Positions 1 to 16,493 of a DNA stretch of 64,000 nt are shown here, in pieces. Position 1 is the stretch's first letter, and the number at the start of each line of letters is the position of its first letter. The notes under the pieces were generated by a model. That model was not told where the DNA came from and ran no database searches. It saw only the letters and a list, made by a program, of their open reading frames with translations. A program made the translations under genes and the position numbers. Location: assembly GCA_002378195.1 (NCBI GenBank), contig DFRJ01000002.1, positions 329,677 through 393,676 on the forward strand, read 5' to 3'. The DNA comes from Patescibacteria group bacterium UBA3466 (GTDB taxonomy: Bacteria; Patescibacteriota; Minisyncoccia; Phycocordibacterales; UBA918).

Positions 1-339
1 GGCTTCAGCCTCTTTCTTTCGCTCTTCGTTCCTGATTCTATACTGCTCTGAAGTATCAATTGTGGCAGAGTTGATGTCGTTAAATTCTTGCAACAACGAG
101 TAATCCTCAAGATTTTGGAAAGTGATTGTTTCAAGATTCTCCCACCCTAGACCCTCTACACTTGCCGGGAAAATTTTAACTGTTCTTACCTCGTAAAGGT
201 CAGCAAAGAATTGTGCGTAAGCTGTAATAGCTCCTAGTGATAGCGCTACACCACAAATAGCCCACAGGAGTGGTTTTTTCGCTTTAAATAGGGTTATTTT
301 ATTGTTACCTCCTAAGTTGTGAGAATTAAATTTTTTCAC
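1..339 (-). CDS. 5' portion of a secreted or membrane protein (N-terminal signal/TM segment KKPLLWAICGVALSLGAITAYAQ). The gene continues past the window start and its start codon is uncertain (GTG at 337-339, or ATG at 391-393 inside a palindrome)
   Basis: The minus-strand frame is open from about 393 to position 1 with no stop. There is a hydrophobic signal-like N-terminus. An AGGAGG sits at 308-313 (minus strand) but no canonical start codon follows it. Confidence 0.3.
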   Translation of the reverse strand, partial: MKKFNSHNLGGNNKITLFKAKKPLLWAICGVALSLGAITAYAQFFADLYEVRTVKIFPASVEGLGWENLETITFQNLEDYSLLQEFNDINSATIDTSEQYRIRNEERKKEAEA

Positions 340-380
340 TAACCTACGCACCTGTCCAGGTAGAACAGGGCTTAGAATAA

Positions 381-417
381 TTATAACGCGCATGATCTTT
401 GATCATGCGCGTTATAG
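381..417. promoter_or_regulatory. Perfect 37-bp palindrome TTATAACGCGCATGATC-TTT-GATCATGCGCGTTATAA (17-bp arms). It lies downstream of the cohesin gene and upstream of the partial gene at the window start; it is a candidate terminator or operator
   Basis: The perfect inverted repeat is read directly from the sequence. Its half-site, TAACGCGCATG, resembles the half-site of the palindrome at 33237-33270. Confidence 0.5.
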
Positions 418-445: not shown

Positions 446-1984
446 TTACCGCAAAATCGTTTTTACATCATTGATTTCTTTCTCAATCAAGGTCTCGGAT
501 ACTTCCAATGCTTGAGTGAGCCCTTCTACAGCTTCTTTTTCTTTCGCTGACAACCGTTTCCTCTTAGTTATTTCGTTGATCTGGTCGTAGATTTCATCCC
601 TGAGGGCTGAGAAGATTTTCTCCATCTGATCCTGAATTTCTCTTGTTTCTCGACGCAACTTCTCTTCTTTCTCCTTCAAATTTCGGTGCTCATACCAGAA
701 GTATATTATCTGGAGAATAATTATAACAATTAAGAAGAAAATAAATAAGTTGGTGGCTGTGAAGAAGTCCCAGAACGAGCCTTCATCCAAATCTTCTACT
801 GGTTTTACCCATCCTGCCTCGATCAGAACTGGCGCGCTACTTTCTCGCTCATTCCCAGCCATGTCCGTCGCCACAACCTTTACTGTATAGGTACCGTCTA
901 TTAGTTCTCGCAGCAGATATCCTAGGCGAGCTTCATCTGGCGTAATACGGATTGGCTCATTGTCCGCGATGGTCATCTCATAGTAGTCAATTCCTGAAGT
1001 TTTATCATCTGCCTCAAATCGAACTAGCGGGAATGAATCCGGAGTGTTACCAGGCACAATCGTTACCACGAATGGTTCTGGCGGGGTTGTGTCTATCTTG
1101 AGCTTTCTGTTTGTTACTGCACCCCAGCCTACTTGGTTTTGGAAGTTGATACTTACGTATTGCTCACCATCTGAGACCAACTCTGGTGTAATAGCAAATT
1201 CTTCTACCGGTGGATCAATGATTGCCTCTTCATTATCTTGAGGCACATTCTCTGGATCATCACTAATTTCAATTGCTACGACATTTACATCAAACGGTAG
1301 TGTCCAAGTGAAGAGTCCGGTTGTTTCGTTGTACCACGTATCTGGATCAAGGAAGGTTTGTGATCCGATTTCCGGTGGACGTGGTGGATCTCCAAAGATA
1401 ATAGCTTCACCATCTTCCGAACTAACGTCTCCTTCATCAGATGTTGGCTCTGGTGTCGGAGTAGGCTCCGGAGTTGGAGTTGCAGCGGCAGTCACACTGT
1501 ATGAAGCGTTTGTTGCACTTCCGTACACATCTGTACCTCGTCCGTCTGCCGCCAAAACAGACGCTTCAGAAACTGTTACATTTCCAGTACCCTCACCGAC
1601 CACTCTAAATGTGACGGTCAATAAGTTTGAAGTAGAAGTAAACGGAGTAGGGCTTCCGCCGCCAAACTCAATCGTCCCAGCTGAATTTGAAAAAGTAGGT
1701 TCAGTTGTCCATAGTGAAAAAACTGAACCATCCTTACTAAGACTAACTACAGATAGTACGTCGGAATTAAAGTTCAAGGTAGATTCAACAGCATTAATAT
1801 TATCCCCATTAGGAACGGCTCTGATGGTGGCTGTAAACGTCTGTCCAGATGAATATGAACCGGTGCTTGGCGAAATAGCCAGGTCTGCAGCCAAAGCAAT
1901 GGTTAGAGAAGCGTAAAACGCAAATAGGCCGATTGCTAATGCGGCGAGGAAATGAACGGTTTTTTTAATAAGGTACTGCATCAT
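446..1984 (-). CDS. Membrane-anchored surface protein with an N-terminal cohesin-like domain, a PT/PE-rich linker, a C-terminal TM helix and a cytoplasmic coiled-coil tail
   Basis: The N-terminus is a signal peptide (LAALAIGLFAFYASLTIALA). The next ~140 aa (ISPSTGSYSSGQTF...LTVTFRVVGEGTGNVTV) look like a cohesin domain. The linker is TPTPEPTPTPEPT. A hydrophobic helix (LFIFFLIVIIILQIIYFW) is followed by a K/E-rich coiled coil. Confidence 0.6.
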   Translation of the reverse strand: MMQYLIKKTVHFLAALAIGLFAFYASLTIALAADLAISPSTGSYSSGQTFTATIRAVPNGDNINAVESTLNFNSDVLSVVSLSKDGSVFSLWTTEPTFSNSAGTIEFGGGSPTPFTSTSNLLTVTFRVVGEGTGNVTVSEASVLAADGRGTDVYGSATNASYSVTAAATPTPEPTPTPEPTSDEGDVSSEDGEAIIFGDPPRPPEIGSQTFLDPDTWYNETTGLFTWTLPFDVNVVAIEISDDPENVPQDNEEAIIDPPVEEFAITPELVSDGEQYVSINFQNQVGWGAVTNRKLKIDTTPPEPFVVTIVPGNTPDSFPLVRFEADDKTSGIDYYEMTIADNEPIRITPDEARLGYLLRELIDGTYTVKVVATDMAGNERESSAPVLIEAGWVKPVEDLDEGSFWDFFTATNLFIFFLIVIIILQIIYFWYEHRNLKEKEEKLRRETREIQDQMEKIFSALRDEIYDQINEITKRKRLSAKEKEAVEGLTQALEVSETLIEKEINDVKTILR

Positions 1985-2005
1985 AATGAACTAAGAACTG
2001 TTAAT

Positions 2006-2488
2006 CTATTTTGGTTTTGGTCTACCCCGACCAATACTCCTACTTCCGGTAACACGCAATTTTACTTTTTCTTTCTCACTAGGTTTCAGCAGCGGCAAAA
2101 CTAATATTAGAACACCGTTCTTTATTTTTGCTTCAGCTTTATCAATATTTACACTTTCCGGGAGGATAATTCTGCGATAAAAATCTCCCCATACACACTC
2201 CTCAGCCACAAAGGATCCTTTAACTTTCTTCTTCGGAAAAACAATATATTCTGGGCGAATCCTCTTTCCCTCTATTAAAACAATATCAGCATCACCTTCA
2301 ATCGAGACATGCACATCGTTCATGTCGGCGCCAGCAGACTGTGCATACACAACAATCATGCGTTCGGTCTGGAAAACGTCTACGTGGAGTTGGGCAATTT
2401 TGTCCGCAGCAGTTTCTTCATCTGCTGACAGAAGTGTCTTTTCACCACTTCTTACTCCCTTACCTTTTAGTCTTTGCAGAAAGGACAT
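2006..2488 (-). CDS. Hsp20/alpha-crystallin family small heat-shock protein
   Basis: The alpha-crystallin domain is recognisable, with the characteristic GVLILVLP segment and an I-x-I-like C-terminal tail. It is 160 aa long. Confidence 0.8.
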   Translation of the reverse strand: MSFLQRLKGKGVRSGEKTLLSADEETAADKIAQLHVDVFQTERMIVVYAQSAGADMNDVHVSIEGDADIVLIEGKRIRPEYIVFPKKKVKGSFVAEECVWGDFYRRIILPESVNIDKAEAKIKNGVLILVLPLLKPSEKEKVKLRVTGSRSIGRGRPKPK

Positions 2489-2575
2489 ACCCTAACATTA
2501 TACTGGTGAACCAGGATTATTTTTTAGTTTTACCCACATATTTTATATTTAAGTAACATCTACCAAGGCTAGACT

Positions 2576-4540
2576 CTATCCAGTCCAGTTAAAGAGTAAG
2601 ATTGAGAAGTCAGTCAGGTTTACCGACCCATCCAGGTTGATGTCAGCTGGCGGATCCGAATCTCCCCCGTTACTGTTCCACCAGAACAACAAGATCGAGA
2701 AGTCAATCAAGTTAACGCTGCCGTCCCTATTTAAATCAGCGTTAATTGGCAATTCAGCATCCTGTCCTACTCCATAAAAAGTATAGTTTGAGAATTGTGT
2801 TTCCGCTCCACCATCTTGCTCTGACCTAGCCCGAACCTGGTACGTGTCACGACTAAATCCTTGAGTGCTGAGCTCTATACTCCATAGACCTGCACCGTTT
2901 GAGGTTGTCACCAGACTATCGGTAGCGGGCAAATTAATACGACTATTCTCTACTGTCACTGTAGCATTTGGTAGTGCGGAACCAGAAAACGTTACTGTTT
3001 GTCCAGGATCAACCGGATCCGGCGTGACTAATATAGTTGGTGCGATATTAATATTACTCAAAGCAGATGTACGTGCACCAGTCACCGTGAATGATGTGCT
3101 AAAGGTGGAAGATCGAGTGTCGTCACCATCTTCTGCATAGACACCGAAGGTATAAGCCCCTCTAGCAATTTCATCGATAGTAATATCATACTCACCTCGA
3201 CTGTTTGTCCGGGTACTATCTACAAAATTACCATCTACTAATATGGAAACTGTACTGTTGGGGTAAGCATAACCAGACACAACAACCCGACCGTCTCCAC
3301 TTCGATAAGGCGCATCTTCACTTTCAAAACCACCCCCAGCAGACGAGCCTGAGTTACCCCCAGAACCACCTCCGCCTCCTCCGCCGCCTCCTCCGGTACC
3401 ACTAGAACCACCTTCTAGTGGGGCCTCTCCATCGGCTTCACCTTCAGTTCCTCCACCACCATCACCAGTTCCAGTCCCTGAGTCTCCTGATCCAGTACCA
3501 TCACCTTCAGTTGAACCTTCGTCATTGGCTGTACCAGTTGGCTGCTCGTTCACAACAAAGCTAATGATGTAGTCGTCGATATTAAAGTTTCCTTCGTCGT
3601 CGATACATCTAACATAGAAAGTTGCCAACGTTCCCGGCGTCACAGCCACTACCGTTGAATGATAAATCAATCCGGTATTAGAGAATAATTCAGTCATCGA
3701 GCCGAAAGCCGTACCGGCGGTTGTGGAATAGCGACAAAAAGCAAATTCGTCAGTCTCCAGTGAGATTTCCACACTCAAGGTCGTACCTCCCACTGTACTA
3801 GTCGGCGACCCGTTAAAACGATACGGCGGTATCTCTTCGGTAGTATCAATGTTCGGCATCGATACGCGCCTATTTAAAAAGATTACAAAATCTGCGTTAG
3901 CCACCAAGCCACCGTCATATATCTCCATCTGCACATCATGCCGACCAAGTACCGAACTATTAACTATCGGCTCCACATCAGCAGCGGTAGTGGTGGTACC
4001 GGTACTAGTACTGAATCCTGTAGAAGCGGCATTGGCAGTACCGGTATGACTACCGATCCTTAACTCGAGATTAGAGCTAGAAGAAATTCCTGAGTCAGGT
4101 GCCAGAGTATAGCGAATAAAACCTGGGCTCCCAGTTGTAATATCTACCCCGTCCACCCCAGGCGAAGGTGTGGTCGTAGACACTCTCGGTACACCATCTA
4201 CAAACAGCTGTACATTTCGCACATCAAAAGTAGAAGTGGCCAGGATCTCAAAACCGTCTGGAGGAGTGACTTCTATTTGGCTACTCGGTGAAATATCAGT
4301 ATTAAGTACGAATGATAGCGTATGATTGGCCGGAGCGTTTGGTGCCGAATCAGAAATAACATCACTATACTCTAAGATATTTACTGCCGCAGCCTCATTT
4401 GGGAATAGCACAAACACCCAACTCAGCAAAAGAGCCGCGGCTATAGCCAAAAACTTGTATCGGTTGGATACTAAATTCATATTTAATATATTGTACCTTG
4501 TAGACTGCGGTTTTTTTGTCGCATTACACAGTTGTAGCAA
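2576..4540 (-). CDS. Secreted protein with a Gly-rich linker, Ig-like region and a C-terminal type-I dockerin (two Ca-binding repeats)
   Basis: The N-terminus is a signal peptide. A long Gly stretch (GGGGGGGGGGSGG) follows. The C-terminus has DLNRDGSVNLIDFSILLFWW and DINLDGSVNLTDFSILLFNW, which match the dockerin DxNxDGxVNxxD-helix repeat pair. Confidence 0.65.
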   Translation of the reverse strand: MLQLCNATKKPQSTRYNILNMNLVSNRYKFLAIAAALLLSWVFVLFPNEAAAVNILEYSDVISDSAPNAPANHTLSFVLNTDISPSSQIEVTPPDGFEILATSTFDVRNVQLFVDGVPRVSTTTPSPGVDGVDITTGSPGFIRYTLAPDSGISSSSNLELRIGSHTGTANAASTGFSTSTGTTTTAADVEPIVNSSVLGRHDVQMEIYDGGLVANADFVIFLNRRVSMPNIDTTEEIPPYRFNGSPTSTVGGTTLSVEISLETDEFAFCRYSTTAGTAFGSMTELFSNTGLIYHSTVVAVTPGTLATFYVRCIDDEGNFNIDDYIISFVVNEQPTGTANDEGSTEGDGTGSGDSGTGTGDGGGGTEGEADGEAPLEGGSSGTGGGGGGGGGGSGGNSGSSAGGGFESEDAPYRSGDGRVVVSGYAYPNSTVSILVDGNFVDSTRTNSRGEYDITIDEIARGAYTFGVYAEDGDDTRSSTFSTSFTVTGARTSALSNINIAPTILVTPDPVDPGQTVTFSGSALPNATVTVENSRINLPATDSLVTTSNGAGLWSIELSTQGFSRDTYQVRARSEQDGGAETQFSNYTFYGVGQDAELPINADLNRDGSVNLIDFSILLFWWNSNGGDSDPPADINLDGSVNLTDFSILLFNWTG

Positions 4541-4931
4541 CCGGCTCCTTCTGTCGCAGATAGTCGAGTGCGTAGTTTAGGAGTATCAAGACCAACAGCA
4601 GAAACAAAATGCTGGCCAAAACATAAGTCGAGGTGTCAGATCCTTGCGCAGTGCCGCCAGTAGACAGCTCAACGGCAATCTCTCGCTCTCGCAAAGCTGA
4701 CTCCCGCTCTTCAAGTTCACGCTGCTTTTGCGTTAAAGCAGCTGTGTACTTATTAAGTTCAGTCGGTTCAACTGAAGCTGAGGCACCGACTGCGTTGGCC
4801 AGATAGAGCTGTGTGTCGTCAGCCAATTTTGCCGTCGAATCATCAATCAGTCCGCTTACGAACACCAAGACACAAGTACAGACAACGGCCGACACCCGTA
4901 ACAAACTATGATAGACACTATTTTCAATCAT
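4524..4931 (-). CDS. Small membrane protein with a central coiled coil (TM - coiled coil - TM)
   Basis: Two hydrophobic segments flank QKQRELEERESALREREIAVE. I found no recognised family. Confidence 0.4.
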   Translation of the reverse strand: MIENSVYHSLLRVSAVVCTCVLVFVSGLIDDSTAKLADDTQLYLANAVGASASVEPTELNKYTAALTQKQRELEERESALREREIAVELSTGGTAQGSDTSTYVLASILFLLLVLILLNYALDYLRQKEPVATTV

Positions 4932-4948: not shown

Positions 4949-6028
4949 CTAAGCAAAAAGGGCTAGTAATACGATGAGGAAGAGCGCTGTCACTGTCAGA
5001 GACACAATAACCACCAACAACAAGGCTGAGGAGTTTCCGTTCCGTCTTCGGCGTACCAAGCGTCTACCTTGACTCAAGTGTGCGAGCGATCGACGGATGT
5101 ATAGTTTTACAATAATAAATGTGATCAGCAATAAGACCCCCAACGCTAGAGCCGCCGGCCCAATCACACTCATTGGCAAAATCCAGAAAGAGACTGTGGT
5201 AGACATGGTCTTTTTTGCCCCTAAGTCTCCATACACCGGACTTACAATCGCTTCATAGCGTCCGAAACCTAGTGAATCACCAGTCCAATTTACATTAAGA
5301 AAGTCTCTTGAATCATTTGGAAAGACGGCGGACTGATCCGGATTAAAAGTAATGCTACCGACTTTGTTTCCTAGCATATTGAAAACTTCTAGCGGACCAG
5401 TTGGTCGCACCAGTACGTTTCCCGTGTTTTCAATACGCACCAAGAAATCGACATTTTGTGAACCATACAAAAACTTTGAAGTCGAGAATTGGCGAATACT
5501 AGCTTGCTCAACAGCTTCCCCTGACACCCTGATACTGATGATGTTTGCTACCTGATATCCAACTGCAGCCCCACTCTTTTCAATCTCAGGCGGTTCAACC
5601 GACAAAAACACGCCACCAAAATGACTCCCAGGAGAGGCATTCTCAGGCACCTCCATCGTAAACTCAATATGAACAATACCTTCGCCCGGTATGGTTATTT
5701 GATCGTAAGGCAATGTTATCCAATCGGCCAACTCGTAGCCAGTTACCTCTAAATTGCTCTGGGCGAATATCGGCGATCCACCCTCTCTAACTCCAGAAAT
5801 ATTCCTAGTAAATAGGTAAAAAGTCTGCTCGTTACTGTTTAGATTCTCAACTTTTAGCGAGTAACTATTAACTGCTCCAGGATCAAGCGTTTCTTCAATG
5901 GTGGCCGGGTTAATACTAACGCCAGTACCTTGGGCATGTAGCGAAGCAGGCACCGCATACGCAAGACATAATAAGAATAGTCCGAAAAATAAGTGTTTCA
6001 AGCGGCTAAGACGACAGTTGTAGTGCAT
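4949..6028 (-). CDS. Cell-surface protein with signal peptide and C-terminal TM anchor plus basic tail, reminiscent of the DUF916/CscA class
   Basis: Signal peptide (LCLAYAVPASLHA). Beta-rich body. C-terminal TM followed by RRSLAHLSQGRRLVRRRRNG. The architecture matches DUF916-type surface proteins, but the family assignment is an inference. Confidence 0.45.
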   Translation of the reverse strand: MHYNCRLSRLKHLFFGLFLLCLAYAVPASLHAQGTGVSINPATIEETLDPGAVNSYSLKVENLNSNEQTFYLFTRNISGVREGGSPIFAQSNLEVTGYELADWITLPYDQITIPGEGIVHIEFTMEVPENASPGSHFGGVFLSVEPPEIEKSGAAVGYQVANIISIRVSGEAVEQASIRQFSTSKFLYGSQNVDFLVRIENTGNVLVRPTGPLEVFNMLGNKVGSITFNPDQSAVFPNDSRDFLNVNWTGDSLGFGRYEAIVSPVYGDLGAKKTMSTTVSFWILPMSVIGPAALALGVLLLITFIIVKLYIRRSLAHLSQGRRLVRRRRNGNSSALLLVVIVSLTVTALFLIVLLALFA

Positions 6029-6149: not shown

Positions 6150-7292
6150 CTAGAATGTAGGTGTTGCAATGTAAGTTAGGTTTGTACTGTAGTCATCAGC
6201 CGCTTCTTGCAGAGCTGTGATTTCAACTTGGTAAAGTACGTCAACCTGACCAATGTTTGCTGTTGAGTTATCAGCTGGGTTATTGTGGTGCATAACTTCA
6301 CGTGGTGTAGTTGATGCTGCGATAAACTCATTAGCTGCAAACTCACTTCCGTAGAATCCTCCAACTGAGTTCAAGTCTGCATCGTTAGTGGTTACACCCC
6401 AGTGTCCCCAGGTAGTTGGGTCATTAACATCTGGTGATGGTGAGGCCCATACTGTATCTGACTCTGACTGATCACCGCCTTCGACGAAGGTGTCGATAAT
6501 AGCTCCAGTTGCAGATTCAAGGTCTCCATCTGTCTGTACTGTAACTACGAATCCGTTTCTTGCATTAGTTTGAACGTTCAACCGTTGCGCTAACGCTTCT
6601 GGTTCTCCAGCTACAAGTGTACCGAAATCTAGCAGCACATCTGAAGATGATCCTGTAGTAGAAGTACCATTAACTGCTGTTGATGTGGCAAGACCTGTAA
6701 TAGTGAAGTCGAACACTGTATCAACGATAGCTCGTACTTCAACGCTATCAACGATAGCTACTCGAGTACGACCTGAGTCACCACTAGCAGAGTCAACGAA
6801 GATTTCATATGATCCGAGTGTTGATGGGTTAGTAATAACTCCAGACGCGACTACGATCTCTACTGTATCACCCGCTGATGCTGCGATTCCGTTGATTGTG
6901 AATGAATCATTGTCTGACGCTACAAATGTTGGAGCTGAGAAACCACCTCCGTTTACTTGAAATGTCAGATCAGAGTTATCGCTGATCACTGAGCTAATGT
7001 CCCCGCCTGCGAAGTCTTGGCCGCCGGCACCGTCATCTTGAGCATCGAAAGTAATTTGGATGTTGTTACCTCCAATAATAGCTGATCCGCCAACTGCAGG
7101 AATCGTAAACTCAATTGAATGAGACGGTTGTGCACTCGGAGCTGAATCAGAAATTGTGTTACTAATGTTTGTAAGGTTAGCTGCTTGTGCATTGTTATAG
7201 ATACCGATTGACATCAATACCATTGCACTTGCAACAAGCGTCGCGACCACTCGTTGCGCAAAGCCAACATTGTTAGTTGCTTTTGCGAACAT
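6150..7292 (-). CDS. Secreted Ser/Thr/Gly-rich surface protein, possibly WxL-like (CscB/C-like). The C-terminus NLTYIATPTF only weakly resembles a WxL motif
   Basis: Signal peptide (MVLMSIGIYNNAQA). It lies next to the DUF916-like gene. The repetitive beta-rich composition is consistent; the WxL assignment is tentative. Confidence 0.4.
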   Translation of the reverse strand: MFAKATNNVGFAQRVVATLVASAMVLMSIGIYNNAQAANLTNISNTISDSAPSAQPSHSIEFTIPAVGGSAIIGGNNIQITFDAQDDGAGGQDFAGGDISSVISDNSDLTFQVNGGGFSAPTFVASDNDSFTINGIAASAGDTVEIVVASGVITNPSTLGSYEIFVDSASGDSGRTRVAIVDSVEVRAIVDTVFDFTITGLATSTAVNGTSTTGSSSDVLLDFGTLVAGEPEALAQRLNVQTNARNGFVVTVQTDGDLESATGAIIDTFVEGGDQSESDTVWASPSPDVNDPTTWGHWGVTTNDADLNSVGGFYGSEFAANEFIAASTTPREVMHHNNPADNSTANIGQVDVLYQVEITALQEAADDYSTNLTYIATPTF

Positions 7293-7602: not shown

Positions 7603-8859
7603 TTATCTGGCTTTAACCCTTTTCAGATCTGACCACTGAGTCGTATAAGCTGGTGACCTGGTTTCTGATCTTGATTGCCACTCAGCTTTTTTCAGCCGAC
7701 TTCCGATCTGCACCAATTCACTATCCGCTTTCTCATTTAAAATATCGATAGAACTCATGAGGTCTCTCCTGTCTTCTTCTTTGCAATCATTAAACATAGT
7801 AGTCTGACTTCCTCCAGCCGGCACCAAATTAGATAAGCTAACTCCGACTTTTTTATAGGGCACATCTGGCTCATAGAGCCGCTCCACCAAGTTGCTGGCG
7901 ACTTTCATTAAACTAAGTGTATCGCTAGTTGGGTTGATAAATATCGTTTCATCTGAGCCTCCTCTTAGTAGAAAATCTCCATGTCGATTAGTTCCCAGAT
8001 AAACTCTAATATTCAGTGTTTCTTTAGCTATTCTTCGCAGATCTTCTGCTACATGCCGCACATGATAAGCTACTGCATCTTGCAATACCGCCAGCTCCTT
8101 TGTCTCAACTTTGAAGGATCTTGAACTTAAAATACTCTTTTGTTTTCGATCACCCTGCTCTATCAACAAAGCCGGTTCACTACGCAGTTCAGACTGTATT
8201 CTAAGTCCATTTATACCGAATAATTTAGCCACCACCGACCGATCTAGCGCTGTTAAATCAGCCACTGTTTTTAAACCATGCGATCGATAATTGAGCTCGG
8301 AACTAGCGCCCAGTCCCCATATTTCCGCCAATCTTATACCGTCCACCAATCCGTCCCACTCAGTTTCTCCAATAACCCTTACACCTACGCCTTTTTTGGC
8401 TACGGCGTTGGCGTACTTTGCCTGAGTCTTGGTGAGAGACACGCCAATCGAAACGGGTATACCAACCTCTTGCAAGATGATTGATCTCAGATTATTAGCA
8501 ATATCTTCCACCTCAGCCTCTGGCGGTAAAGTAAAGAATGCTTCGTCGACTGAATACTGCTCAACGTTTGCCAGCTCTCGCTTCACTACCTCAAAAACTC
8601 GCTTTGAGATATCTCGATACAGAGCCAAATGCGAAGAGAACGTTACAATTCCCTCTTTTTTAACAATGTCCTTTATCTTAAAATAAGGGACACCCATAGG
8701 GACACCTATGTCCTTTACTTCTTTAGAGCGAGCCACTACACAGCCGTCATTACTTGATAAAACCAGTACCGGAACATTCTTTAATTCGGGCCTAAAGAGT
8801 CTTTCGCAGGATACAAAAAAATTATTACAATCTAACAATCCGATCCACTGCTTTTTCAT
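7603..8859 (-). CDS. umuC: Y-family translesion DNA polymerase, UmuC-like (Pol V catalytic subunit)
   Basis: N-terminal LLDCNNFFVSCERLFRPEL...VLSSNDGCVVARS matches UmuC (LCDVNAFYASCE...VLSNNDGCVIAR). The catalytic SVDEAF motif is present. The C-terminus YTTQWSDLKRVKA matches the UmuC C-terminus YTTRWSDLLRVK. Confidence 0.85.
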   Translation of the reverse strand: MKKQWIGLLDCNNFFVSCERLFRPELKNVPVLVLSSNDGCVVARSKEVKDIGVPMGVPYFKIKDIVKKEGIVTFSSHLALYRDISKRVFEVVKRELANVEQYSVDEAFFTLPPEAEVEDIANNLRSIILQEVGIPVSIGVSLTKTQAKYANAVAKKGVGVRVIGETEWDGLVDGIRLAEIWGLGASSELNYRSHGLKTVADLTALDRSVVAKLFGINGLRIQSELRSEPALLIEQGDRKQKSILSSRSFKVETKELAVLQDAVAYHVRHVAEDLRRIAKETLNIRVYLGTNRHGDFLLRGGSDETIFINPTSDTLSLMKVASNLVERLYEPDVPYKKVGVSLSNLVPAGGSQTTMFNDCKEEDRRDLMSSIDILNEKADSELVQIGSRLKKAEWQSRSETRSPAYTTQWSDLKRVKAR

Positions 8860-10139: not shown

Positions 10140-10589
10140 TTACAACAAAGTACGCGCGCTACCCGTCACCACACCCCAAATATAACAATCCTCCATCTCA
10201 TTAACTGCAATTGGTTCATAACCGACCTGCTCGGAGACCAACACCATAGCCCCAGATATCATTTTTAGGCGCTTTACCACCATTTCACCATACACTGCTG
10301 CCACCACAATATGACCATCTTTTGGTGTGACTGATCTGTCCACCACCAGGATATCGTTATCAAAAATCTTGGCTCCTTCCATCGAATCACCAGATACACG
10401 CACAAAAAAGGTGGCCGACTCGTTTTGCACTAGCAAATCATTGATGTTTAGTGACTTTTCCACTAAATCATCACCGGGAGCAGGGAAACCGGCGGCAGGC
10501 TGGCTGGCATACAAAGGATGTTCTGTAGCCTGATTTATATCAGCCATTGAGATGCTTTTAACTACAGTTTCTTTAGGCTGGTTGCTCAT
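10140..10589 (-). CDS. umuD: UmuD-like S24 peptidase (LexA C-terminal-domain fold without an N-terminal HTH)
   Basis: Ser-Lys dyad context: VRVSGDSMEGAKIFDNDILVVD ... VVKRLK. The likely autocleavage site is AAG|F. At 149 aa it has no room for a DNA-binding domain. Confidence 0.75.
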   Translation of the reverse strand: MSNQPKETVVKSISMADINQATEHPLYASQPAAGFPAPGDDLVEKSLNINDLLVQNESATFFVRVSGDSMEGAKIFDNDILVVDRSVTPKDGHIVVAAVYGEMVVKRLKMISGAMVLVSEQVGYEPIAVNEMEDCYIWGVVTGSARTLL

Positions 10590-11837: not shown

Positions 11838-14800
11838 TTAGTCGATATCGACGTTCGAATCAAGGTCTTCTCCTTCAAAGTCAGGATACTCCTCGCTTCC
11901 CGGACAAACTATATCATTGATCTTCCAACGCGTTGTTTTGTAAACAAATCCAGTTGGGTCACTGTGCGGAACAATTCCCTTCTCAAACCAAGGAACTAGG
12001 ATTTCGTCGCTGTAGTTCAATTGGAATTGCTTAACGGCTGCGTCTGTCGCTGCGTCAAACTCACCAGTTACCGCCACGTCGTAGCCCATTACGATACTGA
12101 GGAACATCTGTAGCTTAGTCACTTCCCAACGATCATTTTCCCATCCAACTTGCATGAAATCGATAATGAATGGGCACTGATTCACAGTCGAAGCACCGAG
12201 TACAATTCCTTCTGGAGCTGGTTCAGTTGTTCTGGTTCTAGTTCCAGATGAACTACCGCCAGATGAAGTTTCTTCCTCAGGCTCTTCTGGTTCTTCAGGC
12301 TCTTCTTCCACCACCTGATTTACAAAGTCACAACGGTTACCTTCGTAGATTGGCTCATCAATAACGATCAGAGCCGACAAGCTGTTTCCAATTGTAGTGA
12401 AAATTGATTCGTCCTCGATATAGAACTCACACGACATACTGTCAGTGTCTCCAGTTAACACCTGTAGGTTCTGTCTCACTTCTACTTGCTCATAACCAGC
12501 TGGCATCGCTTCAACCACCACATAGTCATCGCCAAGCAATACGTCGAAGTAATAGTAACCAGTATCATCGGTTGAAGTTGAGGCGATTACATTACCTTCT
12601 CCATCTTCTAGGTAGATAGTCCATCCAGCTTCAGGAACTTCTTGCGCATCTACTAACAAGTACTTGTAACCATCGATTCTTTCAGTCGGCTCTTCAGACA
12701 GAGCGTTGTAGAAGTCACATGTGTATGGTGTCTCATCGTCCATAGACAAGCCTTCGCTACCATACTGCTTTGGATCAAATTCTAGATAACAAGATTCGTA
12801 ACCTTCGCCATTAATGAAGTCATACTCACCTTCATACTCGACTCCGACCTGGTACCAGCCTAGTTGCATAACTTCTGAGACTTCATAATCTCCAACTGGT
12901 GCGTAGAAGTAGTAGTAACCACTGTCGTCAGTTGTAGTTGAGGTGATAAGTTCTTGGTCTTCGTAAAGCTCAATTGTCCAGCCAGCTAGCGGTGTTGCGT
13001 ACTCTGGATCGCCTTCAAACTTATAACCTTCGATCAACATCATGTCTGACGTATCATCGTCACAAGGAACGATAGTTTCTTCATGAATGTCAAAACGGAA
13101 TCCGTCAGATTGAGTATCGACCCACAGTCGGAAGTCTACTCCGTCATAATCTGGAGTCGCGACATCTGAACCATCGTCAGTCGGAACGTTATTAGTTTCA
13201 GAGTGATTCTCTAGCTTGAAACTACCTGAAAGATTACTGAAGTTAGTAATTCCTGCGTCTCGTACTTCAATTCGAGCGTCAATCCATTCATTGTTGGTAT
13301 TACCTCCAGGATTATGCTTACCGTACAACGCCACCTTAACTGTTCCACCTTCTCGACTCACAAACAGACCTGATTTATTACCTGGGTCATCGAAGTTAGT
13401 CACCGTGTGCGGGTCGTTGATCATGGTTGCTGAGGTCTCTCCAGATTCGATAATAGAAACTGGGAACCATTCACCAAATTCAACTGTAGTGTAAGCAGCA
13501 TCACCAAGGATAACTTGCTCATTTAAATGTCCGTTACCAGTATTACCAGTTTCATTCAAGATTACTCGTGCTTCCACAGTCGCCTTACATTCCGGACAGT
13601 TATACTCTTCACCATTGTTTACCTCCACAGCCACAGCGTCTTCACCAGTGGTTAGGTAAAACTCGAAATCTACTCCCTCGTCACCATTCTTATCGAAGAT
13701 GTCAGGATAGCTACTATCCTCAGGATCCTCTAGTTCCCAACCAGGAACCGGACCTCGATCTACTGCCCCAAGATCAATACCTTGAGTCATAATGTTTCCA
13801 AAGGCATAATCGAACTGAGATCCATTATTTCCTCCGCTGATAGCTAACCGGAGATCAGTGCCGTTTCTTTCAACTGCAATTCCGTCCACATCAAGCGCAA
13901 AGCTATTGATAGTTGCATCTCCCACCTCGTCAAAATTGAACCAGGTTCCGGCAGGAATCACATTGTCTTCGTCTCCTAGGTAAATATTCCCATCAAATGA
14001 TACTGATTCAGGAGCATTATCAAGCGAGATCTTTACTAGACGTAAGTCAGTACACTGATTGTCGAGCGTACAATAATCTGTACAGTCGGTGTCACCCGGC
14101 TCACACATTTCCCATCCAGTTACTTCACCGTCACCACAATAAGAGGCGTAGTCTGGCTCCTCAGGCTCTGGCACGTAAGGAATCTCACACAAATCTCCTT
14201 CACCTTCAATTACCAGTTCGTAATACAGTCCAGCCGGGTTATTGGCAGGATTACTGTTACCTGCAAAATTTTCCACCACTACCGACAATTCGTTATTTCC
14301 ACTCTGAATTAGGCCAGTAACATCATACTCCTTAGTAGCAGTATGGTTCACACCACCCAATTCTTCTCCGGCCAGAGCGTCGTTTAGTGAGGCAGAGAAA
14401 TTATTGTCAGCCGCGATATACAGGGTAGCTTCAGTCAAAACGTCACCATTCCAACCAAATTGATTTACAAAAGTCTGTGTTTCTGACTCACTCGGGTTTT
14501 GCGGACCTTGATCTCCCCAGATCCACTCTGCAAGTGGCAATGATTCAGTCCAATTGTCATGGATAAAATCTAGCACTACTGCAAGAGCTCCGTCCTTTTC
14601 AACCACCGTATTTGTATCATCACTCTTAATTGTCACTGTACACTGGGTTGGTACTTCTGGCTCTTCACAGCTTCCGTCAATAATAGTAATCGCGTCAAGA
14701 TCGAAACCGTCACCGTTTGATCCTTGCACACCATTTGACTGGTCCACCAACTTAACAAACTTAACAAAGTCCAGATTGGTATCAGCAATATCAACAGTTC

Positions 14801-16493
14801 CGTCTCCAGTAAGAGTATCGGCTAGTTCGAAGTTAATTCCATCCTCAGACAGATAAACATCAATCATTTCCCCTGTAGCATCAGTGCCTCCGGTAATTTC
14901 CCAGATAGCAATATCTGCACCGGCCTGATCGACAGCGATCTTGTTATCGAATTCATACACCAATTCTCCATTGATACCCATTGAATAGAAGTCTAATGGA
15001 TTCACTTCCCAATCACTCCCCTCGCTACCAAAGAAGTTTGAATATGGTGCTACACCAGCTTCAACAGCTGCCACATCACCTCTAGCAGCATCTACAGCAC
15101 CACCGCCATTTGTTAGACCTTGAATGTGAGACACCACCTGCCCTTCGTAAGTACATACTGACGGAGCTTCGGGCTCTTCTGTTTCTTTCAAGAAGTAAGC
15201 TCGAGCCACCGGTGTGAGCTGTTGCACGAAAGAAGGTGCAACTTGTAGGGTGCTGAGTGCTAGTTGAGGCACTTCTGGGATGTCGATGTAGTCATACTGA
15301 CCATCAATGTCATTAACTACAATACTTGGACCAGCATTGATGTTGTCAGTAAAGATGTGTGGGATGTCGGCACCTTCGTTATGTGTACTGGTATTGGCAA
15401 TATTAAGCACTGAAGGTGATGTAACCTCAAAACCTGGCGCCACATTAATACCGTGCCAGCCGTTATTTTCGGTTGTAATATCACTTGCGTCTACAGTCGA
15501 ACCGTTAACCACGATTCCACTACCTTCAAAATCCTTAACAGTTACATTTTCTAGAGTAATATCGATTGATTCGTAGATATTAATTCCATGCAATTGCTCA
15601 GGCCAAGGCTGATCACCACTGCTCATCAACACAACATCTTTTACAGTCACACCGTCAGTATTGGTAATACCCAACACAGCGTTGTTACTATTGCTAGTTT
15701 TCACAAACTGACCGTCTACGGTAAAACCGTTACCGTCTAGCACAATCGCCTTTGTGATGCTTGTTTGTTCTGTAGTAGAGATGTCAGCTGTCAGCTCAAT
15801 TGTTTCTCCAGCTTCAGTTGTAGCTGCATCAATTGCTTCTTGAATAGTCGCAAAAAATAGATCATCCTCTACATTTCGAACCGTTCCTGCAGGTGCAATT
15901 GGAGTACCGGTAACTACAACATTATCTAGCTTGAACACCTCGTTACTAGTGAAGAAAGCGTTAAATTGTAGCAGTACGCTTGGCTTATCATCCATATCAG
16001 ATGACAAATTGATCTCAGTTAGCGTCCAATCAGAAGTATCGTCACCATCGCCGTCAGAGTAAGTTTTTACTACATCTGCGCCAGTTGGAATAGTCCCTGG
16101 AGTAGCTCGCAGTGTAACACTTTCGCCTGCTTCCAGGTTATCAAGCTGGTAGTAATATGAAACCTTGATGTCTTCATATCCCACAGTTGAAAAACCTGCC
16201 CGTAGTAAAGCATCGGTTGGTGAGGTGGTAGATACCTGGGCGCGGATGTTTCCTTCTTGTGCTCCAGCCGCATTGTTTACGGTTGCCCAAGCGTCACCGA
16301 CTAAAGCTCCGATCCAGTTGCTAAAATCTTCAGTCTCAAAACTGTCTGAAAACAGTACGTCTGGTGCAGCCGCCTCAGCAACATTAAAATTGAAAAAAGT
16401 CGCAGGCACTGCGCTCACTAGTAATGACACGATAGTAAGAGCGGCAAATAGCTTTGCCGAAAATCTCCCCTTCGTCAGAGAATTAATATTCAT
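11838..16493 (-). CDS. Giant (1551 aa) secreted multidomain surface protein: signal peptide, right-handed beta-helix (PbH1-like) repeats, Cys-containing modules, two tandem CnaB/SdrD-B-like repeats, a PEEPEEPEEPEEE linker, and a C-terminal peptidoglycan-binding (PG_binding_1-like) domain
   Basis: Beta-helix rungs (NNAVLGITNTDGVTVKDVVL...NVTVKDFEGSGIVVNGSTV). Repeats GWTIELYEDQELITSTTTDDSGYYYFYAPVGDYEV and GWTIYLEDGEGNVIASTSTDDTGYYYFDVLLGDDYVV. The C-terminus VTGEFDAATDAAVKQFQLNY matches the PG-binding motif. Confidence 0.7.
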   Translation of the reverse strand: MNINSLTKGRFSAKLFAALTIVSLLVSAVPATFFNFNVAEAAAPDVLFSDSFETEDFSNWIGALVGDAWATVNNAAGAQEGNIRAQVSTTSPTDALLRAGFSTVGYEDIKVSYYYQLDNLEAGESVTLRATPGTIPTGADVVKTYSDGDGDDTSDWTLTEINLSSDMDDKPSVLLQFNAFFTSNEVFKLDNVVVTGTPIAPAGTVRNVEDDLFFATIQEAIDAATTEAGETIELTADISTTEQTSITKAIVLDGNGFTVDGQFVKTSNSNNAVLGITNTDGVTVKDVVLMSSGDQPWPEQLHGINIYESIDITLENVTVKDFEGSGIVVNGSTVDASDITTENNGWHGINVAPGFEVTSPSVLNIANTSTHNEGADIPHIFTDNINAGPSIVVNDIDGQYDYIDIPEVPQLALSTLQVAPSFVQQLTPVARAYFLKETEEPEAPSVCTYEGQVVSHIQGLTNGGGAVDAARGDVAAVEAGVAPYSNFFGSEGSDWEVNPLDFYSMGINGELVYEFDNKIAVDQAGADIAIWEITGGTDATGEMIDVYLSEDGINFELADTLTGDGTVDIADTNLDFVKFVKLVDQSNGVQGSNGDGFDLDAITIIDGSCEEPEVPTQCTVTIKSDDTNTVVEKDGALAVVLDFIHDNWTESLPLAEWIWGDQGPQNPSESETQTFVNQFGWNGDVLTEATLYIAADNNFSASLNDALAGEELGGVNHTATKEYDVTGLIQSGNNELSVVVENFAGNSNPANNPAGLYYELVIEGEGDLCEIPYVPEPEEPDYASYCGDGEVTGWEMCEPGDTDCTDYCTLDNQCTDLRLVKISLDNAPESVSFDGNIYLGDEDNVIPAGTWFNFDEVGDATINSFALDVDGIAVERNGTDLRLAISGGNNGSQFDYAFGNIMTQGIDLGAVDRGPVPGWELEDPEDSSYPDIFDKNGDEGVDFEFYLTTGEDAVAVEVNNGEEYNCPECKATVEARVILNETGNTGNGHLNEQVILGDAAYTTVEFGEWFPVSIIESGETSATMINDPHTVTNFDDPGNKSGLFVSREGGTVKVALYGKHNPGGNTNNEWIDARIEVRDAGITNFSNLSGSFKLENHSETNNVPTDDGSDVATPDYDGVDFRLWVDTQSDGFRFDIHEETIVPCDDDTSDMMLIEGYKFEGDPEYATPLAGWTIELYEDQELITSTTTDDSGYYYFYAPVGDYEVSEVMQLGWYQVGVEYEGEYDFINGEGYESCYLEFDPKQYGSEGLSMDDETPYTCDFYNALSEEPTERIDGYKYLLVDAQEVPEAGWTIYLEDGEGNVIASTSTDDTGYYYFDVLLGDDYVVVEAMPAGYEQVEVRQNLQVLTGDTDSMSCEFYIEDESIFTTIGNSLSALIVIDEPIYEGNRCDFVNQVVEEEPEEPEEPEEETSSGGSSSGTRTRTTEPAPEGIVLGASTVNQCPFIIDFMQVGWENDRWEVTKLQMFLSIVMGYDVAVTGEFDAATDAAVKQFQLNYSDEILVPWFEKGIVPHSDPTGFVYKTTRWKINDIVCPGSEEYPDFEGEDLDSNVDID

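Follow-up and report, generated by a model that had tools for sequence, protein, structure and literature searches.

Near the start of a 64,000-nucleotide stretch of contig DFRJ01000002.1 from Patescibacteria group bacterium UBA3466 (positions 329,677 to 393,676, here called the window), three neighbouring genes on the minus strand encode a membrane protein with a cohesin module, a small heat-shock protein of the Hsp20 family, and a secreted protein that ends in a dockerin. The three open reading frames (ORFs) lie where the initial annotation had placed them, and the Hsp20 and cohesin genes are separated by a gap of 21 nt. Searches with custom hidden Markov models (HMMs) and a strict Ca-loop pattern identified exactly one dockerin and one cohesin in the window. 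The trio belongs to a conserved row of seven genes, encoding a Pam-like pilin, a WxLIP/PamCD-like membrane chaperone, a small protein with two transmembrane segments, the dockerin protein, Hsp20, the cohesin anchor, and a giant surface protein. Given this setting, and a head domain of the dockerin protein that appears to be paralogous to the N-domain of the pilin, the trio is not the "self-contained" module that was originally proposed.

The nearest relatives are records named Candidatus Kaiserbacteria, Nomurabacteria or Paceibacterota, and the host lineage is Patescibacteria (candidate phyla radiation, CPR) of the Paceibacteria type. The same DNA is also present in marine metagenome assemblies, including TARA. 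ORFs on the opposite strand inside genes (e.g., 1308-1916, plus strand) were treated as shadow ORFs, being wholly within conserved minus-strand genes. All functional statements made here rest on sequence, predicted structure and comparative genomics. The features of the trio are as follows.

446..1984, minus strand: cohesin anchor protein, 512 aa (ORF list, Pfam, AlphaFold2 model)
1490..1885, minus strand: cohesin module, aa 34-165 of the 512-aa protein
686..775, minus strand: transmembrane helix, aa 404-433 of the 512-aa protein (hydropathy window, helix in AlphaFold2 model)
449..685, minus strand: predicted cytoplasmic helical tail, aa 434-512 of the 512-aa protein (invariant alignment columns, C-termini of 150 representatives)
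2006..2488, minus strand: Hsp20/alpha-crystallin small heat-shock protein, 160 aa (Pfam HSP20, no hydrophobic segment)
2576..4480, minus strand: dockerin protein, 634 aa from ATG 4480 (ORF, gene calls, orthologue alignment, Pfam, AlphaFold2)
2579..2758, minus strand: dockerin module with two Ca-binding loops, aa 575-634 (Pfam Dockerin_1, loop motifs)
3866..4384, minus strand: head domain of the dockerin protein, beta-sandwich, aa 33-205 (predicted local distance difference test score, pLDDT, 85-94; hhalign; BLASTP motif match)

The cohesin anchor protein

An N-terminal cohesin-like beta-sandwich had been proposed for the 512-aa protein, and both profile and model agree with this. The Pfam Cohesin family (PF00963) matches residues 45-161 with a score of 25.1 bits (E 2.2e-5; cutoff 24.1), the alignment spans positions 11-136 of the 139 in the model, and most orthologues have a precomputed PF00963 match. 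The AlphaFold2 model, which was built with 28 orthologues and has a mean pLDDT of 76, shows a signal-peptide helix, a beta-sandwich at 34-165 and a disordered linker rich in proline and threonine (PT linker) at 168-210. Two immunoglobulin/fibronectin type III (Ig/FnIII)-like domains come next (226-388), and a hydrophobic helix that begins at 404 passes into long helices that reach residue 511. The modelled cohesin domain is a nine-stranded jelly-roll that superposes on solved cohesins. Pfam Big_13 is also matched in this protein, and RbmA is not among its top structural matches.

Hydropathy analysis places hydrophobic segments at 9-33 and 404-433, and the protein has no LPXTG motif. The protein is thus predicted to be anchored in the membrane by its C-terminal transmembrane helix and not by sortase, in agreement with the initial annotation. 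That annotation had also described a coiled-coil cytoplasmic tail: a helical tail is indeed predicted, but the label "coiled coil" corresponds to a helix prediction and no more. In alignments of close orthologues this tail of ~80 aa is nearly invariant, and its last ~30 residues (...AL.vSEeLI.KEI.DV.K.L) are recognisable in 150 representatives, down to ~31% identity. Conservation of this kind implies some cytoplasmic partner. The cohesin-anchor family comprises 7,111 cluster representatives, 1,114 of them at E below 1e-30, and retains the same architecture and C-terminal tail motif down to about 31% identity.

The dockerin protein

Orthologues and most gene callers begin the dockerin gene at ATG 4480, giving 634 aa, as opposed to TTG 4540, which gives the 654 aa reported initially. 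The TTG start overlaps the upstream gene for a 135-aa protein, and the 654-aa form is kept by one database cluster. From these comparisons ATG 4480 is probably the true start and TTG 4540 is not; the ORF and the secretion of its product stand, and the length is revised.

Pfam Dockerin_1 (PF00404) matches the C-terminus in two stretches at 32.9 bits against a cutoff of 22.9, so that both this family and Cohesin, the two HMM searches suggested at the outset, score above the gathering cutoff. The two 12-residue loops, DLNRDGSVNLID and DINLDGSVNLTD, carry D1, N3, D5, N9 and D12, as do canonical F-hand dockerins, and in an alignment of 27 orthologues the Ca-ligand positions of both loops are near- or fully invariant. 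The identification as a canonical two-repeat type-I dockerin is upheld, with Ca ligands 1, 3, 5, 9 and 12 intact when aligned.

The remainder of the protein consists of an N-terminal signal peptide, a head domain modelled with confidence as a beta-sandwich (33-205), a conserved segment of low pLDDT directly after it (207-235), a small domain of Ig-like fold (236-312), a disordered spacer rich in glycine and, before the dockerin, two Ig domains of the Big_6 type. Pfam, the AlphaFold2 model and a structure search revealed no catalytic domain in this protein, as expected from the earlier description of an Ig-like/Gly-rich, non-catalytic body. Between the head and the N-domain of the 380-aa pilin-like protein encoded nearby, hhalign gives a probability of homology of 98.5% (E 2.1e-15), and BLASTP a motif match at E 7e-6; the two are homologous, the head being a paralogue of the pilin N-domain. 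A Pam C-domain is lacking in the dockerin protein. Compared as a whole with the PDB, the model matches the Haloferax S-layer glycoprotein best (7ptp_A, E 6.6e-10). Because the TM-score is only 0.14, this match appears to reflect a generic string of Ig domains. Single-sequence PDB searches with four proteins of the locus gave only weak dockerin matches (E 0.06-0.5) and noise.

Conservation and co-variation of the pair

The close sample consisted of 80 species-representative genome loci with an orthologue of the cohesin protein at 56-78% identity. Both genes of the pair are single-copy and present in all 80 sampled species of the clade. In 76 of these loci the gene immediately upstream of that for the cohesin protein encodes Hsp20, the other four being cut by contig ends, and the dockerin gene is found upstream of the Hsp20-cohesin pair in 69 of 80. 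Ten of the 11 loci without a dockerin gene are too short upstream to judge, hence 70 are informative and 69 of these have it (the exception, L061, is discussed below). Synteny at this distance proves little, since the unrelated umuC/umuD genes are also kept, and more distant relatives were therefore sampled. For these the locus scan used a 10-sequence subgroup alignment, as a 32-sequence alignment of distant members was too diverse.

At 25-42% identity the dockerin gene adjoins the cohesin gene or genes in nearly every locus with enough upstream sequence, and the flanks differ in those loci that were examined. The distant loci come in two layouts. Layout A has the order pilin-like, WxLIP-like, small transmembrane protein, dockerin protein, Hsp20 and cohesin protein, after which a giant ORF usually comes next. 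Layout B consists of a WxLIP-like gene, a short dockerin protein and 2-6 tandem cohesin paralogues with two Ig domains each, and then a last cohesin protein with a long tail; it has no Hsp20. Every layout-B cohesin paralogue has a signal peptide and a C-terminal transmembrane helix. In the short dockerin proteins the stalk and the dockerin are kept and the pilin head is swapped or absent, as expected of a modular display protein. Pilin and chaperone genes accompany both layouts.

Arrays of 3-7 cohesins per single dockerin gene were observed in several layout-B loci of other CPR lineages (L106 556-9638; L110 3-9018; L113 4745-11338; L104; L108-L112), and the long conserved tail is confined to the last cohesin protein of each array.

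The dockerin-Hsp20-cohesin trio is unbroken in L027, where an insert that comprises an ABC transporter and three FGE-like genes parts it from the pilin module. In L074 the trio is present and pilin genes are absent from the 7 kb upstream. The FGE/SUMF1-like genes are three tandem paralogues both in L027 (2714-7040) and in L061 (1020-3595); their fold was assigned by eye from a GNVWEW-type motif.

Mean pairwise identity over 74 loci is highest for the dockerin among the modules compared (75.9%), followed by Hsp20 (69.6%), the cytoplasmic tail of the anchor (64.5%) and the cohesin (60.7%), while the remainder of the dockerin protein reaches 49-53%. Evolutionary distances of dockerin and cohesin were compared by distance-matrix regression, in which Hsp20, both Ig tandems and the tail were taken out beforehand. 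The two modules retained a residual correlation, with a partial r of 0.25 (p about 0.004 by permutation); module pairs used as controls gave 0.01-0.09. This residual co-variation is specific and fits a conserved binding interface. Together, the deep adjacency, the constraint on the dockerin and the residual correlation support the earlier proposal of a cognate, non-cellulolytic pair encoded side by side.

Some public records containing such loci carry unexpected taxonomic labels. L018 (PANR01000036.1), a CPR locus with a 75% identical cohesin protein, is filed in a metagenome-assembled genome labelled Legionellaceae, and many other loci are labelled "uncultured Candidatus Saccharibacteria". 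It is probable that these records are mis-binned or mislabelled.

The Hsp20 gene

The gene between the pair encodes a small heat-shock chaperone, as first annotated: Pfam HSP20 (PF00011) matches residues 40-143 at 40.4 bits against a cutoff of 20.8. Because hydropathy analysis shows no hydrophobic segment, the protein is predicted to be cytoplasmic and would therefore have no chaperone role at an extracellular docking step. Hsp20 is linked to the cohesin gene in layout A only, including the distant layout-A loci. A link between Hsp20 and the conserved cytoplasmic tail of the anchor is speculation.

Pilus-type neighbours and the giant gene

On either side of the trio the locus contains the following features.

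6150..7292, minus strand: Pam-like pilin candidate, 380 aa (NCBIfam NF058581 matches in orthologues)
4949..6028, minus strand: WxLIP-like / PamC-D-like protein, 359 aa (family profile, Pfam WxLIP_PGBD, hydropathy)
4524..4931, minus strand: small membrane protein, 135 aa, with the order transmembrane segment, charged helix, transmembrane segment (ORF, hydropathy)
382..416, minus strand: conserved hairpin between the stop of the cohesin gene and the giant gene (17-bp stem, comparative consensus)
1..345, minus strand: giant surface-protein gene, 5' end only, running off the window (gene call in source contig, Pfam)

The 380-aa protein has a signal peptide, an N-domain and a C-domain that is distantly related to that of Pam pilins. 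NCBIfam NF058581 (CPR_Pam_pilin_C) is matched by 27 of 32 orthologues; full-model matches have E values of 2e-7 to 6e-4, and several span the whole model and end at the protein C-terminus. All scores are under the 55-bit cutoff of the curated family (15.9 bits for the window protein, 30.9 for the best orthologue). We regard the 380-aa protein as a distant homologue of Pam pilins and not as a curated member. No WxL domain was detected in the 32 orthologues at E up to 0.1, nor elsewhere in the locus, and the profile of the 380-aa family has no PDB match.

The 359-aa protein has a signal peptide, a DUF916 (WxLIP_PGBD) Ig domain, a second Ig domain and one or more C-terminal membrane segments. Its family profile matches EfmWxLIP1 (9i25/9i1y) at E 2e-5, and Pfam WxLIP_PGBD is matched by 30 of 32 orthologues (best E 2e-9); the family is homologous to the DUF916 domain of WxL-interacting proteins. 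The 135-aa small membrane protein is a conserved partner of this chaperone-like gene, found in 59 of 80 close loci and in distant ones.

The giant protein has 7,532 aa in the source contig (L001 11592-21539), with an N-terminal transmembrane segment and DUF2341, Laminin_G_3 and Ig_Rha78A_N domains. In 73 of 76 close loci the next ORF 3' of the cohesin gene runs unbroken to the end of the 10-kb flank, and the same was seen in six distant layout-A loci. The called start, ATG 393, falls inside the hairpin, and the place where homologous proteins begin in an alignment points to a GTG near 345 as the start. Neither a dockerin loop nor a significant dockerin or cohesin HMM match was found in six homologues of full length (5,441-5,708 aa) or in 14 further ones. 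On this result, a C-terminal dockerin that would make the giant protein the true ligand of the cohesin was rejected. A visual likeness of its last residues to a Pam/WxL-type acceptor domain was also discarded, there being no significant pilin C-domain HMM or NCBIfam match.

The hairpin has a 17-bp stem in the window and a 13-bp consensus stem over 34 species, in which 9 pairs show compensatory double changes. The outer stem is formed by UAUACCGCGC/GCGCGGUAUA; an ATCCACA box ~15 nt upstream is conserved, and a TATA(C/A)T-TATAAT box directly follows. There is no Rfam family for this element. The element might control read-through into the giant gene as a terminator or attenuator, or else serve that gene as promoter or operator.

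Just upstream of the locus, genes for a UmuC-like (Y-family) polymerase and a UmuD/LexA-like S24 peptidase lie around a GH18 gene (window 7603-8859 and 10140-10589, minus strand). The two genes form a translesion pair of the polymerase V type, here in a CPR genome that is reduced, and the pair is syntenic with the locus in many relatives. Further along, a 1,551-aa putative surface protein (11838-16493, minus strand) combines a pectate-lyase-like adhesive domain, a SpaA/SdrD_B prealbumin-like domain and a C-terminal PG_binding_1 domain. It is a putative second envelope protein near the locus, and its domains suggest a different form of anchoring, by binding to peptidoglycan.

A proposed surface tether and its alternatives

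The analysis shows which domains and topology signals the proteins have, what the locus is made up of, and how its modules are conserved and co-vary; we infer that the two proteins bind each other, that binding depends on Ca, and that the complex is connected to a surface fibre. We consider it reasonably probable that they form a non-cellulosomal cohesin-dockerin tether of the Paceibacteria-type cell envelope, which holds a pilus-related surface protein on the membrane. In such a scheme the 512-aa protein would be exported by Sec and retained in the membrane by its C-terminal helix, with the cohesin held off the membrane by the PT linker and the two Ig/FnIII domains and the helical tail exposed to the cytoplasm. 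The dockerin of the secreted 634-aa protein would fold around two Ca2+ ions and plug into this cohesin, an arrangement that would hold the protein on the cell surface and need neither sortase nor SLH domains nor an outer membrane. So tethered, the 634-aa protein would present its pilin-type head on a stalk made of the Gly-rich spacer and two Ig domains. Given the homology between this head and the N-domain of the Pam-like pilin encoded nearby, the pair would serve for anchoring or display within a larger surface-fibre locus, comprising the pilin-like subunit, the WxLIP/PamCD-like chaperone, the small transmembrane protein and the giant LamG/DUF2341 protein. Hsp20 would be a co-transcribed cytoplasmic passenger or quality-control factor, outside the extracellular docking.

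Several observations weigh against this tether. The Cohesin score of the window sequence is just 1 bit over the Pfam cutoff, and AlphaFold2 leaves the dockerin module (residues 578-634) unfolded, with a pLDDT of about 28. In L061 the Hsp20 and cohesin genes are kept and FGE-like genes stand in place of the dockerin gene. The close-clade synteny extends to umuC/umuD, as noted above. The many-to-one ratio of cohesins to dockerins in layout B means that cohesins may have other ligands. Finally, the mirror-tree signal is modest, and tests of this type are inflated by shared ancestry.

Some of these points also favour the view that the two modules are not partners, the dockerin binding another cohesin or a non-protein ligand (e.g., of a host cell), the cohesin binding something else, and their adjacency reflecting co-regulation of envelope genes. 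The paralogous cohesins of layout B and the cohesin gene of L061 that has no adjoining dockerin gene fit this explanation, and in the survey of Peer and colleagues from 2009 many non-cellulosomal cohesins and dockerins reportedly have no known partner. We nevertheless think it unlikely, as the two genes remain neighbours at 25-42% identity in nearly every locus that is informative, the flanks being different in those examined, the dockerin is far more constrained than the rest of its own protein and co-varies specifically with the cohesin, and neither the window nor the giant neighbour offers a further dockerin or cohesin. A minimal cellulosome, in which a scaffoldin recruits dockerin-bearing glycoside hydrolases, might be suspected from the type-I-like folds and motifs of both modules and from GH1, GH18 and GH42-like genes elsewhere in the window. 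However, there is a single cohesin and no carbohydrate-binding module (CBM), the sole dockerin carrier has no catalytic domain, and no glycoside hydrolase of the window carries a dockerin. The absence of a dockerin from any enzyme refutes the cellulosome for this window, and we give it next to no credence. An S-layer-like coat, with the dockerin protein forming a lattice and the cohesin protein as its membrane pedestal, would be structural and not part of an adhesin or pilus. It is suggested by the 7ptp_A match and by the presence of both genes, in single copy, in all sampled species, but that match has the TM-score of a generic Ig string and the head is homologous to a pilin N-domain, and such a coat seems quite improbable.

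Within the tether model, a more specific role can be envisaged, which we advance tentatively and would not expect to hold: a cohesin-dockerin bond might replace strand insertion for ending and fastening a Pam-like donor-strand pilus, with the dockerin protein as base subunit and the cohesin protein as membrane pedestal. The invariant tail, with the co-transcribed Hsp20, would then couple the fibre, and perhaps the giant adhesin too, to the cell interior. As the membrane-proximal terminator, the dockerin protein would donate a strand from its head and the disordered residues 207-235 to the last 380-aa pilin; as it has no acceptor C-domain, growth would stop there, and its bond to the 512-aa protein would take the place of the strand insertion predicted for the one-piece anchor PamR. 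The homology of the head to the pilin N-domain, the lack of a Pam C-domain, the conserved low-pLDDT segment after the head and the pilin and chaperone genes in both layouts are consistent with such a terminator, as is the organization "2 x FnIII-like + C-terminal TM (transmembrane helix)" shared by the 512-aa protein and PamR (doi 10.64898/2026.03.03.709456). On the other side are the layout-B dockerin proteins without pilin head, the L074 trio without upstream pilin genes, the absence of RbmA from the top structural matches of the anchor, and Pam assignments that all fall under the curated cutoff; on balance a terminator is a minor possibility. The lack of the head in layout B argues for a more general "display" role.

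Comparison with known systems

The locus resembles the type I pairs of clostridial cellulosomes (1OHZ, 2VN5/2VN6, 6KGC) in having a duplicated F-hand dockerin with Ca ligands at positions 1, 3, 5, 9 and 12. The two halves of its dockerin are near-identical (VNL[IT]DFSILLF), which in known dockerins permits dual binding modes. In contrast to these cellulosomes, each protein has a single cohesin, a CBM is lacking and the dockerin protein carries no enzyme. Anchoring is by a transmembrane helix at the C-terminus, with a cytoplasmic tail, and not by sortase or SLH domains. L-I and L-T stand at recognition positions 10/11 in place of S-T, and the host belongs to the CPR.

Non-cellulosomal cohesin-dockerin modules are said to be widespread, according to the 2009 survey mentioned above. 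The glycosidase/toxin complexes of Clostridium perfringens (2VO8, 2W1N, 2O4E) and the cohesin of Archaeoglobus fulgidus (2XDH) share with the locus a use outside cellulose degradation, and NagJ (2w1n) likewise has an FnIII-type domain after its cohesin. In those systems soluble enzymes are joined to each other; in the present case the protein held would be non-enzymatic, with a pilin-type head, and its holder a membrane protein. The operon that contains the pair is conserved and also includes pilus-type genes, an Hsp20 gene and one for a giant protein.

In the WxL clusters of Firmicutes, WxLIP has the organization DUF916-DUF3324-TM (PMC10599100; PDB 9i25/9i1y). The 359-aa family shares with it DUF916 homology, two Ig domains and a C-terminal transmembrane segment, but a WxL domain is not detectable in the 380-aa family or the locus and there is no LPXTG partner. 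TMEM132 / coherin of holozoans has the same type-I membrane order of cohesin, tandem Ig domains, transmembrane helix and cytoplasmic tail, a likeness of architecture alone; it is eukaryotic, with three BIG domains and no dockerin partner known (PMC6030884).

The closest parallel for the fibre genes is the Pam pilus of CPR bacteria (Troman et al. 2026, doi 10.64898/2026.03.03.709456), where PamC and PamD are membrane-anchored chaperones with two Ig domains and a transmembrane helix at the C-terminus, and PamR, a C-terminally anchored 2xFnIII protein, is predicted to terminate and anchor the pili. That work makes no mention of cohesin, dockerin, Hsp20 or WxL. Like the Pam system, the locus is CPR-specific and encodes a secreted two-domain pilin whose C-domain matches CPR_Pam_pilin_C (below cutoff), together with a chaperone-like 359-aa protein whose two Ig domains and C-terminal transmembrane helix liken it to PamC/D as described. 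The 634-aa and 512-aa proteins together resemble a split PamR. Unlike Pam, the lineage is of Paceibacteria type and not Saccharimonadia or Microgenomatia, the anchor has a cohesin in place of the N-terminal donor strand, a dockerin protein, Hsp20 and giant protein are added, and ATP-synthase genes are absent among the window proteins scanned.

No description of a CPR cohesin-dockerin anchor was found in the literature searched. The cohesin-dockerin kind of interaction is already known; what is proposed here is a membrane-anchored CPR form of it in a pilus-type locus. CPR/Patescibacteria are thought to live attached to host cells, and how appendages are fixed in CPR cells, which have no outer membrane, is to our knowledge largely unknown; no sortase signal is present here. 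The locus provides a concrete and widely conserved candidate (7,111 cluster representatives) for a Ca-dependent, mechanically strong joint linking a pilin-headed surface protein to a pedestal in the membrane. If the two proteins do bind, the Pam pilus system would be extended to another CPR class with a different anchoring principle, and many of the "orphan" non-cellulosomal cohesins and dockerins would gain a clear physiological role.

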